Shown here piece after piece: positions 3,210-52,497 of a stretch of 64,000 nucleotides of DNA; position 1 is the first letter of the stretch, and each line of letters opens with the position of its first letter. The notes under the pieces are model-generated. The model was not told where the DNA came from and searched no databases. It saw nothing but the letters and a program-made list of their open reading frames with translations. Position numbers and translations under genes: made by a program. Origin of the DNA: Chloroflexota bacterium (lineage in GTDB: Bacteria > Chloroflexota > Dehalococcoidia > UBA2247 > JAUWOP01); contig JAUWOP010000001.1 of NCBI GenBank assembly GCA_030612045.1, positions 26,767 to 90,766 on the forward strand. Reading direction: 5' to 3'.

Positions 3210-3554
3210 ATGAAGATGCTTTTTGTTGACCCCAAATTCTACCGCTGGGGATTTAGCTACCCTAACAGTGTTTCTGCCTTTGGTCCTATCTGTGTGGCTA
3301 CCTATCTGAAACATAATGGGCAAGAGGCTGAGATACTCGACATGAATGCCAGGAATGTCGGATGGGAGGAGCTTCCATCTATAATCAGAGAGAAGAACCC
3401 TAATATTGTTGGTATCCCCAGTGCGATGAATTGCTATGTTCCTGAAGCCCTGGAAGTTGCCGGGATTACCAAATCAGCAAACCTCAATATTGTCACTATT
3501 GGTGGAGGGATGAATTTTACCATACATAAAACCCTAATTCCTACTCCCCCATAA
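3210..3554 (+). pseudogene. N-terminal cobalamin-binding domain of a B12-binding radical SAM enzyme; the radical SAM domain is missing (truncated gene)
   Basis: MKMLFVDPKF...PICVATYLKHNGQEAEILDMNA...NPNIVGIPSAMN...IVTIGGG matches the B12-binding domain pattern. The ORF stops after 114 aa and abuts a convergent gene. Confidence 0.45.
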
Positions 3555-3957: not shown

Positions 3958-4149
3958 AGTATATAAAGAGGCAAGAATTCCCTCACTCCCTTCTGTAAAC
4001 GGATTATATGAAATTTAGCTCTAAGTGTCAACAATGTTCCTTCTGAAAAGCTCCAATTGGCAGGATAATTAGTAAGATTGAGACTTGTATGGCAAGCATG
4101 CTACACTTATTAGTGGTGGGAGCAAATAGATGTTGAGGAAGGGAGAGTA

Positions 4150-14578: not shown

Positions 14579-14896
14579 ATGGCAGAATTTGAATTTGATG
14601 AGTCAGAGCCTTGTTATGTCATAAGTATAGTAGCTAAGCGGGTTGGTATCCATATCCAAACCTTGCGGTATTATGAAAAGATGGGTGTTATTCAGCCAAC
14701 ACGCTCTGAGGGGAATATTCGCCTCTATTCAGAAAAGGACATCGAGAGGTTGCGGAAGGTCAAAATGCTAACAGATGACCTGGGAGTAAACCTCGCTGGA
14801 GTTGATGTCATCCTGCGCATGACAGAACATATGATAGAAATGGAAAGAGAGATGGAGCAGCTACGGGAGGAAATCAGAAAGCTAGATATGAGATAG
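14579..14896 (+). CDS. hspR: MerR-family heat-shock repressor HspR
   Basis: MerR HTH YVISIVAKRVGIHIQTLRYYEKMGVIQPTR, coiled-coil C-terminus, sits in a dnaJ-hspR-clp operon context. Confidence 0.75.
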   Translation: MAEFEFDESEPCYVISIVAKRVGIHIQTLRYYEKMGVIQPTRSEGNIRLYSEKDIERLRKVKMLTDDLGVNLAGVDVILRMTEHMIEMEREMEQLREEIRKLDMR

Positions 14897-14911: not shown

Positions 14912-14943
14912 GGGTAGGTTGACCGATGTCGGTCAACCTACCC
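14912..14943. repeat. Family C 32-bp palindrome, copy C1 (centre TG)
   Basis: gggtaggttgaccga-tg-tcggtcaacctaccc, in the intergenic gap between hspR and clpC. Confidence 0.7.
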
Positions 14944-15057
14944 ATGATGAGATGGGCATTGATAGAGACCCTTCCCCTTTCTATCCCTGTTTGGTAAGGG
15001 GGAGTTGGGGCTGATAGCTAGGTCTCTATCTCTGTCTGATAAGGGGGTGTCACCATA

Positions 15058-27140: not shown

Positions 27141-28235
27141 TCAAATATACTCCACCCGGCACCCTCTTCTTCTCATTACCCCCAGTGTTATAGAAAGTGC
27201 TTCGGCATCATGGTCACAGGAAGATAGCACTATCATTGCCGAAGGTAGAGGGTGCATCCCGGAGACCTTTTGCAATGCCTGTGCTGCAGGGTGATTCTCT
27301 GCTCCTCCACAAATAGCTCTATATTCTAATTCCAGGAGTGCTGCTAGTTTCTTCGCTGCCTCAGTCTCAGCTTCCTTCAGTCGATTCAGGGTTTGCCTCA
27401 ATATTTGGATGTTAGGTGGTTGGAGGAACCTAACCCCAAGTTCAACTATTATTATCTGTGGTATCAGTTGCAGCGCTTTCTCAAGTGCTGCTGTAGGGGG
27501 CATGGTAGGGGTTACTTCTATAACCTCCTGATGGTTATATGCTGCCAGTATCACAGGAATGGAATTTCTCGCCAGAGTCATCACAGTGGAGACAAGATTG
27601 AGCGCCAGTTTATCAGCCGCCTCAGCATCACTTACCGCCAGGTTGACCACCACTACAACAGAGCCTCGCGGTGCCTCCAGATATTCCTTCACCACCAGAC
27701 TCCTGAGTTTTGCCGTATGCTTCCAATCTATGTTTATCAAACTATCGCCAGGTTGAAAGAGACGGCTGCTATAGTACTCATCTTTGGCACCATACCTGAG
27801 TTTGGTAGATATTATAGTGGCAGTTCCACCTCCTCTTCCTGCTTCTCCTGCCAGGTATCTTCTTGCCAGCCACTCAGCATATCTAGCTCGGGGAATCACT
27901 ATCATCTCTGCCAGTTCCAGCCTCTGATTTGTCTGAATTAACCCCCATGGGTCAAGGATAGATGCCTGGAGTAATAACTGGGAGGGACCCGCCAGGGGTG
28001 GGGTGAGGAACGCCTCTATACTTACCTCATCTTTAATCTCACACTCGGTGGGTGAGGTGAGCCTAACCCATGGATAGGGGGAACTTAGTTTGGCACGCAG
28101 TGGCATACCATGATGGTTCCAAGCCTTTCCGGAAAGTGATTTTGTCTCACCAGCTACTACCTTGATTTCAGTCTGAGTACTCTCTAAAGGTGTAGTGGAA
28201 AGGTGATGCATGGTGCGGTAGGTGAGCGCCAGCAA
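27141..28235 (-). CDS. DUF58 domain protein (MoxR-partner, vWA-like)
   Basis: FQPGDSLINIDWKHTAKLRSLVVKEY is the DUF58 signature region. Confidence 0.65.
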   Translation of the reverse strand: MLALTYRTMHHLSTTPLESTQTEIKVVAGETKSLSGKAWNHHGMPLRAKLSSPYPWVRLTSPTECEIKDEVSIEAFLTPPLAGPSQLLLQASILDPWGLIQTNQRLELAEMIVIPRARYAEWLARRYLAGEAGRGGGTATIISTKLRYGAKDEYYSSRLFQPGDSLINIDWKHTAKLRSLVVKEYLEAPRGSVVVVVNLAVSDAEAADKLALNLVSTVMTLARNSIPVILAAYNHQEVIEVTPTMPPTAALEKALQLIPQIIIVELGVRFLQPPNIQILRQTLNRLKEAETEAAKKLAALLELEYRAICGGAENHPAAQALQKVSGMHPLPSAMIVLSSCDHDAEALSITLGVMRRRGCRVEYI

Positions 28236-28692
28236 GTAGGCTGCCAGTAAGGCTCATAGTATAGTCACCTAGCAAGAGGGCAATAACCAGCACCACACTC
28301 AGAAACAGCGCCATTGCCTTGAATACAGGGGTAGGTTTTCTGCCCTCCACAGTGGTAGGTTGACCGACATCGGTCAACCCTACCCAAAGGGGGATAAAGG
28401 GCTCTCCTTGAGCATTCCTCCTCAGCTCCCAGTCCAGCAGAGGAATAGCAGGTATTACTATAAAGGCAGACGCTATGCTAAAAGGTTGAGGTATTATTGC
28501 TTTGAAGGTCAGTGGCAATAATGCCAGGCTCAGCAAAATCAGGGGTAGCCCTACTCTGGGACTGACTGTCTTCCACAGAAAGTATGCCTGTAACAAGAAT
28601 AGTGCTATTGCTACCGCAGAGTAGGGCATTGGTGAGAGCACCATCACCACTACTGTGGCAAGCATGATGTATATGCGAGAGAAAAGGTTCAT
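28168..28692 (-). CDS. Hypothetical integral membrane protein (about 4 TM) between moxR and the DUF58 gene; contains an in-frame family C palindrome
   Basis: Strongly hydrophobic helices. Palindrome C2 encodes the loop GLTDVGQPTTVEG. Confidence 0.45.
   Translation of the reverse strand: MNLFSRIYIMLATVVVMVLSPMPYSAVAIALFLLQAYFLWKTVSPRVGLPLILLSLALLPLTFKAIIPQPFSIASAFIVIPAIPLLDWELRRNAQGEPFIPLWVGLTDVGQPTTVEGRKPTPVFKAMALFLSVVLVIALLLGDYTMSLTGSLLAGAHLPHHASPFHYTFREYSD
28355..28386. repeat. Family C palindrome, copy C2 (centre CA, one extra C), in frame inside the membrane-protein ORF
   Basis: ggtaggttgaccga-ca-tcggtcaaccctaccc. Confidence 0.65.
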
Positions 28693-28737
28693 AATCCCCC
28701 TAACCCCCTTTAGAAGAGGGGGAAAGAGGGGGATTAT
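28693..28737. repeat. Family B hairpin element, copy B1 (moxR / membrane-protein spacer)
   Basis: aatccccctaaccccctttagaagagggggaaagagggggatt, a nested inverted repeat. Confidence 0.6.
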
Positions 28738-28758
28738 TCTTCTTTAATGATTTGGACA

Positions 28759-29709
28759 TTACACTCCCCTGGGCACAGGGACCCTCTCTATAGCTCTCTC
28801 AATAATGTCTCGTGGAGTTATCTCTCCCACAATATCTGTCTCCTGATTCAGGTGAATGCGGTGCTCCACTACCGGGCGGATAAGCCGCTTCACATCATCT
28901 GGTATCACGAAATCCCGTTCTTGTAAGAAGGCTAGCGCCCGTGCCCCCTTATATAGAGAGATGCTGGCTCTAGGTCCAGCACCACTGGAGACATCCTCAT
29001 CTCCCCGAACATGATTTACTATTCTAACAATATAATTCTCTATCTCAGGGGAAACAAACACCTTGGTGACAGCCTTTCTAAATTCTATCACCTCAGCAGG
29101 GCTTATCACTGGCTCTATCTGGAGGATGTCAAGGCTGTCAATCCTGCGAAGTATCTCGACTTCCTCTGCCCCCGGAGGATAGTTGCTCTCTGCATAGAGC
29201 ATGAAACGGTCAGCTTGAACCTCAGTAAATGGGTAGGTTCCTTCAGCTCCATATTTGAGCTGGGTGGCAATAACCAGGAATGGTTGTGGGAGGGTGTGGG
29301 TCACCCCTTCTACTGTTACCTGCCCCTCCTGCATTGCCTCCAGTAGAGCTGATTGAGTTCGCGGGGTAGTAAGATTTAGCTCATCAGCTAACACCACATT
29401 AGCAAAAATGGGTCCTGGGATGAACCGTGACTTACCATTGAGGTCGTAAATATTGAACCCTGTGATGTCACTGGGGAGTATGTCAGGGGTGAATTGAATG
29501 CGTTTGAATTCACCACCCAGGGCGAGGGCGAAGCTCTTAGCAATAGTAGTCTTGGCAGTGCCGTTGGCACCCTCAATGAGGATATGTCCCCCGCTGAGGA
29601 TTGCCACCCCCAGTAGCTCCTTCAGCTCTGCCAGCCCCACCACTACACGGGAGACCTCATCCACTATCTTCCCAAATGCTTCAAGTGATACCTTAGGTGT
29701 TTCAATCAT
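28759..29709 (-). CDS. MoxR-family AAA+ ATPase
   Basis: HILIEGANGTAKTT Walker A, DELNLTTPRTQSALLEAMQE Walker B / sensor, length 316 aa. Confidence 0.85.
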   Translation of the reverse strand: MIETPKVSLEAFGKIVDEVSRVVVGLAELKELLGVAILSGGHILIEGANGTAKTTIAKSFALALGGEFKRIQFTPDILPSDITGFNIYDLNGKSRFIPGPIFANVVLADELNLTTPRTQSALLEAMQEGQVTVEGVTHTLPQPFLVIATQLKYGAEGTYPFTEVQADRFMLYAESNYPPGAEEVEILRRIDSLDILQIEPVISPAEVIEFRKAVTKVFVSPEIENYIVRIVNHVRGDEDVSSGAGPRASISLYKGARALAFLQERDFVIPDDVKRLIRPVVEHRIHLNQETDIVGEITPRDIIERAIERVPVPRGV

Positions 29710-29917: not shown

Positions 29918-30023
29918 CTTCTTTTACTTGACCATCCAATGCCTCATGGGTTTTTATATCCAGGTATCCCAACTCTTGAGACAGAAGTAGATGATATTCG
30001 TAAGTGTTCACCTGCTCCCTATC

Positions 30024-30106
30024 AAATCCCCCTTAGTCCCCCTTTTCTAAAGGGGGAAAAGAATGTAAGCCTCCCCCTTTTCTAAAGGGGGACTAAGGGG
30101 GATTTT
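30024..30106. repeat. Family B composite element, copy B2 (two CCCCCTTTTCTAAAGGGGG hairpins inside an outer inverted repeat)
   Basis: aatcccccttagt-cccccttttctaaaggggg-...-cccccttttctaaaggggg-actaagggggatt. Identical over more than 80 bp to the reverse complement of copy B5 at 52330. Confidence 0.7.
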
Positions 30107-31334: not shown

Positions 31335-31428
31335 TCTTCCCTAAGGGGGGGGGAATGGAAGTCCCCCTTCCCTAAAGGAAGATCCCATCAGTCCCCCTTT
31401 TCTAAAGGGGGATTTAGGGGGATTACAA
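31335..31428. repeat. Family B element, copy B3 (contains a G9 tract)
   Basis: ccctaagggggggggaatggaagtcccccttccctaaagg...gtcccccttttctaaagggggatttagggggatt. Confidence 0.55.
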
Positions 31429-31716
31429 ATTCTCATACACTCTTTCGACAGCTCCACTAAGGTTCTCAAACACCTCTCTATCTGAAAACCGCAAGACTTT
31501 CAATCCATGCTCCTTCATATAATCATCCCTAATCTTATCCTTCTTAACCCCCTCATCATTGTAGTGCTGGCTACCATCAATTTCAATAATTAGCTTTGCT
31601 TTTGGACAGTAGAAATCGACTATATAGTTACCTATAATCCTCTGCCTATAAAATTGATACCCTTTCAACTGCTTTCTCCTCACCTTAGACCAAAACAGCC
31701 TTTCTGCATCAGTCAT
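31423..31716 (-). CDS. DUF559 / Vsr-like PD-(D/E)xK endonuclease-domain protein (97 aa)
   Basis: ...YQFYRQRIIGNYIVDFYCPKAKLIIEIDGSQH...LRF matches the D...EIDG DUF559 core. Confidence 0.6.
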   Translation of the reverse strand: MTDAERLFWSKVRRKQLKGYQFYRQRIIGNYIVDFYCPKAKLIIEIDGSQHYNDEGVKKDKIRDDYMKEHGLKVLRFSDREVFENLSGAVERVYENL

Positions 31717-31796: not shown

Positions 31797-31835
31797 TAAT
31801 CCCCCTCTTTCCCCCTTTTCTAAAGGGGGATTACG
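31797..31835. repeat. Family B hairpin, copy B4, 3 nt beyond the stop of the 652-aa gene; possible terminator
   Basis: taatccccctctttcccccttttctaaagggggattacg. Confidence 0.5.
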
Positions 31836-52223: not shown

Positions 52224-52497
52224 GTAACCGTTCACCCTGTGTCATTGCGAGCATCCGACCCGCCGCTGCGCTGGGCGGGTTATATCAGAAAGGAACTCTG
52301 AGTTCCTTAGGAGGAGTGTAGCGATGAGTAATCCCCCTTAGTCCCCCTTTAGAAAAGGGGGAGGCTTACATTCTTTTCCCCCTTTAGAAAAGGGGGACTA
52401 AGGGGGATTTGATGGAGGATGAGATTAGCCTTGCGTCTTCGCTCCGCTCGCAATGACGGGTGGAATTTCATCACCCGCAACCTAATCTAACATTGTC
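52224..52497. repeat. Family A long-form element, copy A6, with a complete family B composite (copy B5, 52330-52410) nested inside
   Basis: gtaaccgttcaccctgtgtcattgcgagc + cccgccgctgcgctgggcggg module + [B5] + gagattagccttgcgtcttcgctccgctcgcaatgac + gggtggaatttcatcacccgcaacctaatctaacattg. Confidence 0.7.

Follow-up and report, generated by a model that had tools for sequence, protein, structure and literature searches.

Copies of family C in the window

The stretch of DNA analysed here, referred to as the window, comprises 64,000 nt of the Chloroflexota bacterium contig JAUWOP010000001.1 (assembly GCA_030612045.1; Dehalococcoidia) and is 99.9-100% identical to contigs of ENA ERZ4220366 and Logan SRR12623520. 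It contains three copies of a short palindrome, family C, that very probably belongs to the repetitive extragenic palindromes (REPs) of GTAG type, is hosted by a Dehalococcoidia-like Chloroflexota genome and is linked to a REP-associated tyrosine transposase (RAYT). A search of the window with the motif GGGTAGGTTGACCGA-NN-TCGGTCAACCTACCC, allowing up to 3 mismatches, gave three matches and none in 100 dinucleotide-preserving shuffles, which bears out the three related palindromes reported in a first-pass annotation of this DNA. A half-site search of the window produced no degenerate copy beyond them. The three copies are the following:

Copy C1, 14912-14943, no strand given: GGGTAGGTTGACCGA-TG-TCGGTCAACCTACCC, a perfect 15+15 palindrome with centre TG.
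Copy C2, 28353-28385, minus strand: 33 nt, centre CA (TG on the coding strand), within a DUF58-family gene.
Copy C3, 34838-34871, no strand given: a perfect 34-nt palindrome with centre CG (GACGTC).

C1 lies 15 nt past the stop of an hspR-like MerR gene (14579-14896) and 114 nt ahead of clpC. C3 is found 6 nt past the stop of a DUF1015 gene and 32 nt before the start of a DUF7982 gene, both on the minus strand, and is also present in the sister assemblies L033 and L035 (loci and assemblies are referred to by L numbers and proteins by P numbers). The first-pass annotation was right that a copy exists at C2, although it is better described as 33 nt at 28353-28385 than as 32 nt at 28355-28386. 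Compared to the consensus, C2 has one added base (CCC at 28378-28380 for CC, an extra G on the coding strand) and a mismatched outermost base, while the outermost pairs of C3 deviate from the family consensus (CAGG.../...CCTG).

A copy inside a split DUF58-family gene

C2 lies within the DUF58 gene of an operon with the order DUF7982-DUF8044-DUF4129-DUF4350-MoxR-DUF58, which is conserved in the relatives L039 and L040. The features around it are the following:

28759-29709, minus strand: MoxR-type AAA+ ATPase gene, directly upstream in the operon (Pfam AAA_3, AAA_5, AAA_lid_2).
28168-28692, minus strand: open reading frame (ORF) of 174 aa that corresponds to the multi-helix membrane domain at the N-terminus of a DUF58-family (MoxR-operon) protein of ~520 aa.
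28348-28395, minus strand: segment of 16 codons, IPLWVGLTDVGQPTTV, flanked by the conserved motifs ..PF and EGRK.
28254-28255, minus strand: junction of an 11-bp deletion, in which one unit of the near-tandem AGCCTTACTGT/AGCCTTACTGG was lost (DNA alignment with L037).
27141-28211, minus strand: C-terminal DUF58 part, 356 aa as called, with a Pfam PF01882 match.

Used by itself as a query, the 174-aa ORF retrieved no homologue. The 356-aa DUF58 part has homologues of 500-550 aa (94-100% coverage) reaching ~170 aa further at the N-terminus, and in a protein alignment the 174-aa ORF shared 52% identity with P0002 and P0003 at their N-termini. The membrane protein described earlier at 28168-28692 holds as a conserved membrane domain, not as a complete gene, being the N-terminal fragment of a ~520-aa one. 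In the protein alignment, and in a codon alignment with L039 and L040, the interval between the ..PF and EGRK motifs has 16 codons in the window and 4 in the homologues, a net insertion of ~12 codons (36 nt, plus or minus one codon). The palindrome-encoded segment is missing in 12 of 12 aligned homologues and the motif was found in none of 120, indicating that the palindrome arrived with the insertion of these ~12 codons.

The consensus palindrome is open in only one of its three frames (GRLTDVGQPT), the other two containing TAG and TGA. C2 entered in the TGA frame; with its extra G, reading passes to the open frame and the length becomes 33 nt, or 11 codons, translated on the minus strand as W-VGLTDVGQPT (the peptide encoded across the palindrome is NAQGEPFIPLWVGLTDVGQPTTVEGR). 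Such a pattern would be expected if copies that lack a stop and preserve the frame were the only ones able to persist. The 174-aa fragment, modelled with AlphaFold2 (mean predicted local distance difference test score, pLDDT, 79.6), shows six long helices; the insert maps to residues 97-121, a loop of low confidence (pLDDT ~53) that joins helix 71-96 to helix 122-141. The earlier proposal of an in-frame insertion in an inter-helix loop is thus supported and, judging from these comparisons, C2 is a genuine in-frame intragenic REP insertion that added a loop of ~12 residues to a DUF58-family membrane protein. Insertion of REPs in frame is uncommon, yet already documented behaviour.

The intact 520-aa allele (P0123) was found in four other sister-strain assemblies, and its reading frame runs across the same palindrome; SRR12623519 and SRR14865926 are samples with this allele. 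The deletion of the 11-bp unit at 28254/28255 is common to the window, L033 and L034, and yields the 174-aa and 356-aa ORFs. Outgroup homologues agree with the undeleted form, so the deletion is recent, and it is not connected with the palindrome. C2 provides an example of a REP inserted in frame in a membrane protein, with intact and broken alleles of the gene in one population. For annotation, what looks like an 'orphan' ORF of 174 aa is part of a larger gene, and palindromes of this kind can create spurious ORFs or lengthen real ones.

In the same operon, an 81-aa DUF559/Vsr-like gene fragment (PF04480, MTES_1575; ~31423-31668, minus strand) is located between the CarboxypepD_reg/DUF4129 and DUF4350 genes. 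It is not present at that position in L039 and L040.

Distribution, gene context and predicted fold

The pattern GGTTGACCGANNTCGGTCAACC, with fixed arms and free centre, was scanned in one genome per species plus the Joint Genome Institute (JGI) metagenomes, and 32 loci were returned. Twenty-four of them, from metagenomes and metagenome-assembled genomes, carry the full 32-bp consensus GGGTAGGTTGACCGACGTCGGTCAACCTACCC and correspond to ~20 independent sites once orthologous pairs are merged; the flanks of these sites are unrelated and the GC content of the contigs ranges from 34 to 58%. A repeat family with further copies had been predicted, and this is what the scan found. The remaining 8 loci (L001, L003, L005, L006, L010, L015, L017 and L032) have other flanks and were discarded as unrelated or chance occurrences of the 22-nt core. 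The core was not found in a scan of viral contigs, and a full-text literature search for the exact sequence retrieved no paper containing it. Inspection of the flanks of 20+ copies revealed no target-site duplication, no direct repeats and no common insertion motif; the flank GRAGACCTTWWAA is common to three loci (L007, L022, L026), the remaining context being unrelated. Short contigs with 2-3 copies were seen (L021, L022, L026), and the 7.6 kb upstream of the window hold one related variant palindrome.

At no fewer than 9 of the ~19 other loci, the copy is located 5-35 nt past the stop codon of a long ORF. The neighbours are diverse: nuo subunits, alcohol dehydrogenase, nitronate monooxygenase, molybdopterin oxidoreductase, TatD, a GGDEF regulator, trpF, nadA, PolX and tsaE. 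Toxin-antitoxin (TA) modules adjoin several copies, namely DUF4258 (L007 395-658) and Phd/YefM (L011 501-785, L025 10456-10758, L022 1270-1473), and L011 and L025 share a homologous module, with the palindrome on one side of it in L011 and on the other in L025.

As RNA or single-stranded DNA, each copy is predicted to fold into a 14-bp stem with a 4-nt loop, at -27 to -32 kcal/mol (z -7 to -8). The values are -26.9 kcal/mol (z = -6.9) for the 32-bp element, -28.4 kcal/mol (z = -6.9) for the RNA hairpin of C1 and -31.6 kcal/mol (z = -8.4) for C3. The centre dinucleotide falls within the loop (an ACGT tetraloop). Around C1 a terminator scan detected neither a terminator-like site nor a T-tract, and the flanks of all copies have no consistent T run. 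A sigma-70-like promoter score was obtained upstream of clpC at window positions 14919-14948, made up of the TTGACC of C1 and, 18 nt on, CATGAT; it may be incidental.

Family C as a probable GTAG-type REP

REPs and domesticated transposases are well described in Proteobacteria, and this family would add to them one from Dehalococcoidia with an unusually clean, symmetric architecture. The published REP rule asks for GT[AG]G 0-2 nt 5' of a fully paired stem of 7-20 bp with a 2-5 nt loop (PMC6006769). Family C has this arrangement on both strands, GG-GTAG-GTTGACCG-ACGT-CGGTCAAC-CTAC-CC, and as a 32-bp perfect palindrome it falls within the 20-40 bp of these short stem-loops. GTAG REPs are mostly located after ORFs, between unidirectional genes, can supply TAG stops, are sometimes intragenic and translated (with examples listed in several species), flank RAYT genes and have been reported in Chloroflexi, as GTAG-23 of T. 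roseum (PMC3733652). The positions of C1, C3 and the copies downstream of ORFs at other loci agree with this 3'-end location. Family C thus resembles the GTAG REPs and REPtrons already described (PMC2817692, PMC3733652) in its 20-40 bp hairpin with a GTAG foot, its location downstream of ORFs, its occasional in-frame copies and its proximity to RAYT. Dehalococcoidia, however, are not in the published lists of GTAG-REP hosts cited here, and one copy of family C lies inside the frame of a RAYT, whereas the cited REP literature mentions only REPs overlapping the ends of the RAYT gene.

The first-pass annotation had compared C2 with the Rickettsia palindromic elements (RPEs; Ogata et al. 2000), which are reportedly inserted in frame in protein genes. 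The likeness is real: in both cases a palindrome inserted in frame adds a surface or loop peptide and the protein is kept intact. We know of no transposase for RPEs. Apart from the in-frame behaviour, family C shares no trait with RPE-1 to RPE-8: RPE-1 has 100-150 bp and these are unrelated Rickettsia families, whereas family C has 32 bp, an unrelated sequence and a Chloroflexota host. Actually, RPE-4 and RPE-6 have been equated with REPs, classed as CGTC-tagged, in the same work that lists intragenic REPs (PMC3733652), so the analogy is right as behaviour and wrong as family, the element being a GTAG-type REP with a RAYT.

Linkage to RAYT genes

Two loci of the scan connect the palindrome directly with a transposase. 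In L026 it is in frame within a 187-aa protein with MPDHLHLL (HUH) and YIHHNPV motifs, and in L031 a RAYT homologue starts ~200 nt from a family-C copy located upstream of it. Both proteins match Pfam Y1_Tnp and score above the cut-off of 80 bits for the NCBIfam model NF047646 'REP-associated tyrosine transposase' (109.3 bits for L026 and 107.5 bits for L031), whereas for the IS200 equivalog they reach only 31-36 bits, below the cut-off of 55. In a search of the PDB, phmmer with the RAYT found nothing and only a profile of the clade reached a structure, E. coli TnpA-REP 4ER8 (E = 3.8e-9), the best match among solved structures (YafM; PMC3479197; Ton-Hoang 2012). The HUH motif, the WQ motif and the catalytic Tyr region of the Dehalococcoidia RAYT align with 4ER8, and the clade differs from it by ~30 extra residues between HUH and WQ, which include the palindrome-encoded peptide. 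The matches to RAYT given by tblastn in L007, L011 and L022 corresponded to this peptide only and were discarded.

There are ~200 RAYT homologues, most of them labelled Dehalococcoidia or Chloroflexota. At every locus fetched the gene is single-copy and found in the pyrimidine operon, pyrB-pyrC-(carA)-RAYT-carB-pyrK. A single-copy, vertically inherited and housekeeping-like pattern is characteristic of RAYTs (PMC5581495), and it is shared with the REP doublet-forming hairpins (REPINs; Bertels & Rainey 2011; PMC5581495), whose RAYT is likewise syntenic and apparently vertical; here the place is always the pyr operon. Differently from REPINs, no inverted doublet of REPs was seen and the unit is one symmetric hairpin. 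Insertion sequences of the IS200/IS605 group also have a Y1 HUH enzyme acting on single-stranded DNA hairpins and insert without target duplication, but here no element with left and right ends travels with the gene.

The window was extended upstream with the sister contig L051 (window position 1 corresponds to L051 7647), which provided the RAYT of the window genome itself:

L051 2207-1678, pyr operon: own RAYT of the window genome, 5.4-6.0 kb upstream of window position 1.

The gene order in L051 is pyrB, pyrC, carA, a VapBC pair, an unknown gene and RAYT. A palindrome with GGGTAGAGTTCGCCCGACGTCGGGTGAACTCTACC (L051 2235-2268), of the GTAG type and with the apex CCGACGTCGG, is found 28 nt ahead of the RAYT ATG; its full 34-nt sequence is GGTAGAGTTCGCCCGACGTCGGGTGAACTCTACC, with one mismatch, and L026 has a like arrangement. 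It is a variant and not family C itself. A RAYT with an adjoining REP, the arrangement known as a REPtron, is therefore found in this genome through L051, and also in L026, L031 and L050, the last with the RAYT flanked by clusters of related GTAG palindromes.

TA or defence cassettes are likewise found near the RAYTs (HicB, DUF433/DUF5615, PIN, SLFN_AlbA_2, TIR domain). In L026 the first ~57 nt of carB are duplicated (3300-3355 and 4010-4066), with the RAYT unit inside the duplication, and the upstream copy of the carB start is ended by TGA plus a GTAG palindrome.

Stem variants and the palindrome inside RAYT genes

The related palindromes have in common the base GGGTAG.../...CTACCC and the apex CCGACGTCGG, and their mid-stem differences are always matched on the other arm: the variants TTGACC, TTGCCC, TTGGCC, CTGGCC, TCGCCC and GCTTGGCC all keep perfect complementarity. 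Among nine variants, 99.2% of the cells were paired and 6 pairs had changed on both sides, a result equalled by none of 500 shuffles and by no slid register, although the test is partly circular as these variants were collected with a palindrome finder.

The palindrome within RAYT genes is, in contrast, an unbiased test case. In five orthologues (65-78% DNA identity) the segment at homologous codons has a core of 30-32 nt that is a perfect palindrome in four. The changes are compensated: ACC>GCC is paired with the synonymous GGT>GGC, TTG>CTG with CAA>CAG (both synonymous) and AGG>AGC with CCT>GCT. Only 4 of the 589,824 synonymous codings of the peptide are palindromic (~7 per million). A second sub-clade of RAYTs has another palindrome at the same place, GGGTTGGAGCAGATGCTCCAACC, with the peptide GLEQMLQPT, and dispersed copies of GGGTTGGAGCAGATGCTCCAACC cluster around the RAYT in L050, L047 and L046. 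In 120 RAYT homologues the first motif was found in 26 and the second in 87. The in-frame palindromes, all between the HUH and the WQ/Tyr motifs, are at these positions:

L026 3579-3610
L042 10324-10355
L043 10318-10349
L049 10354-10385
L046 10327-10352
L047 10302-10323
L050 4268-4295
L051 1879-1902

The hairpin is located just upstream of the WQ motif, and in E. coli TnpA-REP (YafM) it is this motif that reportedly contacts the GTAG of the REP. We consider the chances evenly balanced that a clade of Dehalococcoidia RAYTs carries in its own frame a REP-type hairpin maintained at the nucleic-acid level, which could act as a self-recognition site (for autoregulation or cis-cleavage) or be the master copy of the dispersed REPs. 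If true, the transposase would be physically coupled to its own substrate, an arrangement not described in the REP/RAYT literature cited, and the hairpin would give a direct handle on RAYT-REP recognition, autoregulation and co-evolution.

Variation of the centre dinucleotide

The centre is CG at most family-C sites and CA/TG at C1, C2, L012/L019 (one shared event) and L027; no other dinucleotide was seen in ~21 family loci. These numbers do not permit a comparison of the substitution rates of arms and centre, because the scan of the collection held the arms fixed. TG and CA had been interpreted as the two products of deamination of a methylated CpG. As the element is a palindrome, they are in fact the same single C>T transition read from opposite strands.

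A modification of the REP interpretation, additional to it and not a replacement, would be that GACGTC or ACGT is C5-methylated and that the centres TG/CA come from deamination of 5-methylcytosine. This we regard as possible but rather doubtful. The five independent centre variants (C1, C2, L012/L019, L027 and the palindrome upstream of the RAYT of L049) are all C>T transitions, the CpG observed/expected ratio (O/E) in the window is 0.49, with 1.075 for TG/CA, and ACGT occurs 28 times when 68 are expected from trinucleotides and 248 from base composition. The Vsr-like DUF559 gene fragment would fit as well. However, the central CG falls in the unpaired tetraloop, where cytosines exposed in single-stranded DNA deaminate faster also when unmethylated and where changes escape the selection acting on the stem. 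Moreover, five events are a small sample, no methyltransferase was identified, and GATC (O/E 0.10) and GGCC (0.20) are depleted beyond ACGT, which looks like general restriction avoidance. By Markov expectation, ACGT is the third most under-represented palindromic tetramer of the window (O/E 0.41, with 0.44 for CGCG), and the avoidance of several short palindromes suggests several restriction-modification pressures. The depletion of CpG and ACGT is compatible with methylation or restriction avoidance alike, and the centre changes with deamination with or without methylation.

Observations that weigh against a REP

Several observations do not fit well with a REP mobilised by the RAYT. The element is a perfect palindrome, its GTAG paired with CTAC so that the tag is read on both strands, whereas canonical REPs are imperfect, with an unpaired GTAG at one end. 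The copies are singletons that form neither REPINs nor the doublets of bacterial interspersed mosaic elements (BIMEs). They are apparently few, with 3 per 64 kb here and a single exact copy on contigs of 166-291 kb elsewhere, while classical REPs exceed 100 copies per genome and reach the hundreds. The identical 32-mer is spread over many genomes and found even in contigs of 34-40% GC (L002 1817-1848/L029 981-1012 and L023 4102-4133), next to genes for a Por_Secre_tail (type IX secretion sorting) beta-propeller protein (L002/L029) and an LpxB-like protein (L023); judged by these neighbours, the hosts are apparently not Chloroflexota. Among the orthologous loci checked for presence/absence alleles there was no empty DNA site for any copy: every pair compared carries the copy, and L011/L025 have only the TA module in common and not the site. 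Recent mobility of family C is for this reason not demonstrated.

The RAYT of L051 has a CC insertion in the HUH motif (GAC-CC-CAT CTG CAT) that is identical in L052. As it breaks the motif in two independent assemblies, the RAYT of the window genome is, to judge by its reading frame, probably an inactive pseudogene. Furthermore, the palindrome within this gene belongs to a different (E-type) family, and several genomes have dispersed variants other than the one within their local RAYT, so that a cognate pairing is not established.

Alternative explanations

A different mobile system that moves small cassettes, with these palindromes as its recombination sites or as what is left of its ends (attC-like sites, IS200/IS605 subterminal hairpins or the ends of miniature inverted-repeat transposable elements, MITEs), is very unlikely. 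Such a system would account for the TA modules adjoining several copies, with the palindrome on opposite sides of the L011/L025 module, for the TA or defence cassettes near the RAYTs and for the RAYT unit within the duplicated 5' end of carB in L026. Yet neither an integrase nor tnpB is found nearby, the larger units are not surrounded by target-site duplications or terminal inverted repeats, and most copies flank housekeeping genes. The 32 bp are perfectly symmetric, whereas attC sites have 55-140 bp with extrahelical bases, and the Y1 proteins score as RAYT and not as IS200 (109 vs 31 bits), at a fixed syntenic position. Among the particular candidates, a MITE was rejected because none of the 20+ copies inspected is flanked by direct repeats, and an integron attC because GTTGACC is one base off the GTTRRRY box and no annotated locus contains arrays or an integrase.

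The high stability of the hairpins (-27 to -32 kcal/mol) and their typical spot 5-35 nt past a stop could also be expected of locally arisen terminators, mRNA-stabilising hairpins or a conserved structured RNA, with no dispersed element involved. We consider this highly improbable. An identical sequence at unrelated loci and genomes cannot arise independently, one of the copies is coding, and only 32 nt separate C3 from the following gene in its operon. An intrinsic terminator was rejected because the T-tract is missing and the terminator scan came out empty, and an Rfam search of the window matched nothing except two tRNAs. This reading therefore fails as an account of origin.

Finally, a duplex site for a dimeric DNA-binding protein (an operator, a parS-like site or a site of HspR like the HspR-associated inverted repeat, HAIR), conserved for the protein and not mobile, is extremely unlikely: the perfect dyad conserved across genomes, the three copies within 20 kb, the place of C1 between hspR and clpC, with a -35-like TTGACC and, 18 nt later, CATGAT overlapping it, and the loose resemblance of its TTGAcc-N6-ggTCAA to the HAIR half-sites (which we take to be TTGAGT/ACTCAA) would favour it, but 32 bp of exact identity far exceed what an operator needs, the neighbour genes are functionally unrelated, the copies are just past stops and not in promoters, arm changes are always compensated, even synonymously within a gene, as fits a hairpin and not independent half-sites, and the element is linked to RAYT genes. 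Length, symmetry, context or the independent assemblies ruled out a parS, a HAIR operator, a protelomerase site, a solo CRISPR repeat and an artefact of sequencing linkers.

Possible origin and persistence of the copies

With the GTAG-type REP as the preferred interpretation, family C would be a non-autonomous element whose single-stranded hairpin and GTAG would be bound and cut by the RAYT (HUH-Y1), present as one gene per genome, by analogy with E. coli TnpA-REP. By the same analogy, cutting by the RAYT could seed copies at new sites without target duplication. Copies would persist where the harm is small, a few nt past stops between co-directional genes, as seems to be the case of C1 and C3; there they would be transcribed and might act as stable 3' hairpins. 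C2 would have been inserted where the DUF58-family protein has a loop joining two membrane helices, and would have survived because the single stop-free frame was used, the extra G avoiding TGA, making 33 nt and restoring the frame. Changes of C to T at the centre CG, being in the loop, leave the strength of the stem intact and could be tolerated or favoured. The three copies in the window are probably relics no longer mobile, given that the RAYT of this lineage is frameshifted. The data directly show the family and its distribution, its capacity to form hairpins, the insertion of C2 as compared with homologues, the intact allele that reads across it, the link to RAYT genes and the compensated changes in the arms. 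Mobilisation by the RAYT, any role at the RNA level and the order of the insertion and of the +1 correction of C2 are what we infer from these data.

Other palindrome families

Several REP families coexist in Dehalococcoidia. Further GTAG...CTAC families, exemplified by GTAGGGGCAATTCGCGAATTGCCCCTAC and GTAGGGGAGGGTTTCAAACCCTCCCCTAC, were seen in related genomes (L031 226-253; L047 19202-19229; L046 15964-15992, 16204-16232 and 18082-18108; L049 5468-5496). The window also contains a second palindrome family, TCCCCCTTTTCTAAAGGGGGA, with at least 6 copies (30037-30057, 30072-30092, 31390-31414, 31810-31830, 52342-52362 and 52377-52397) and also at ~28694-28740. Copies of this family occupy gaps of the MoxR operon that are not present in the relatives L039 and L040. 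An 84-nt block, 30015-30098, is 100% identical, inverted, to 52330-52413.

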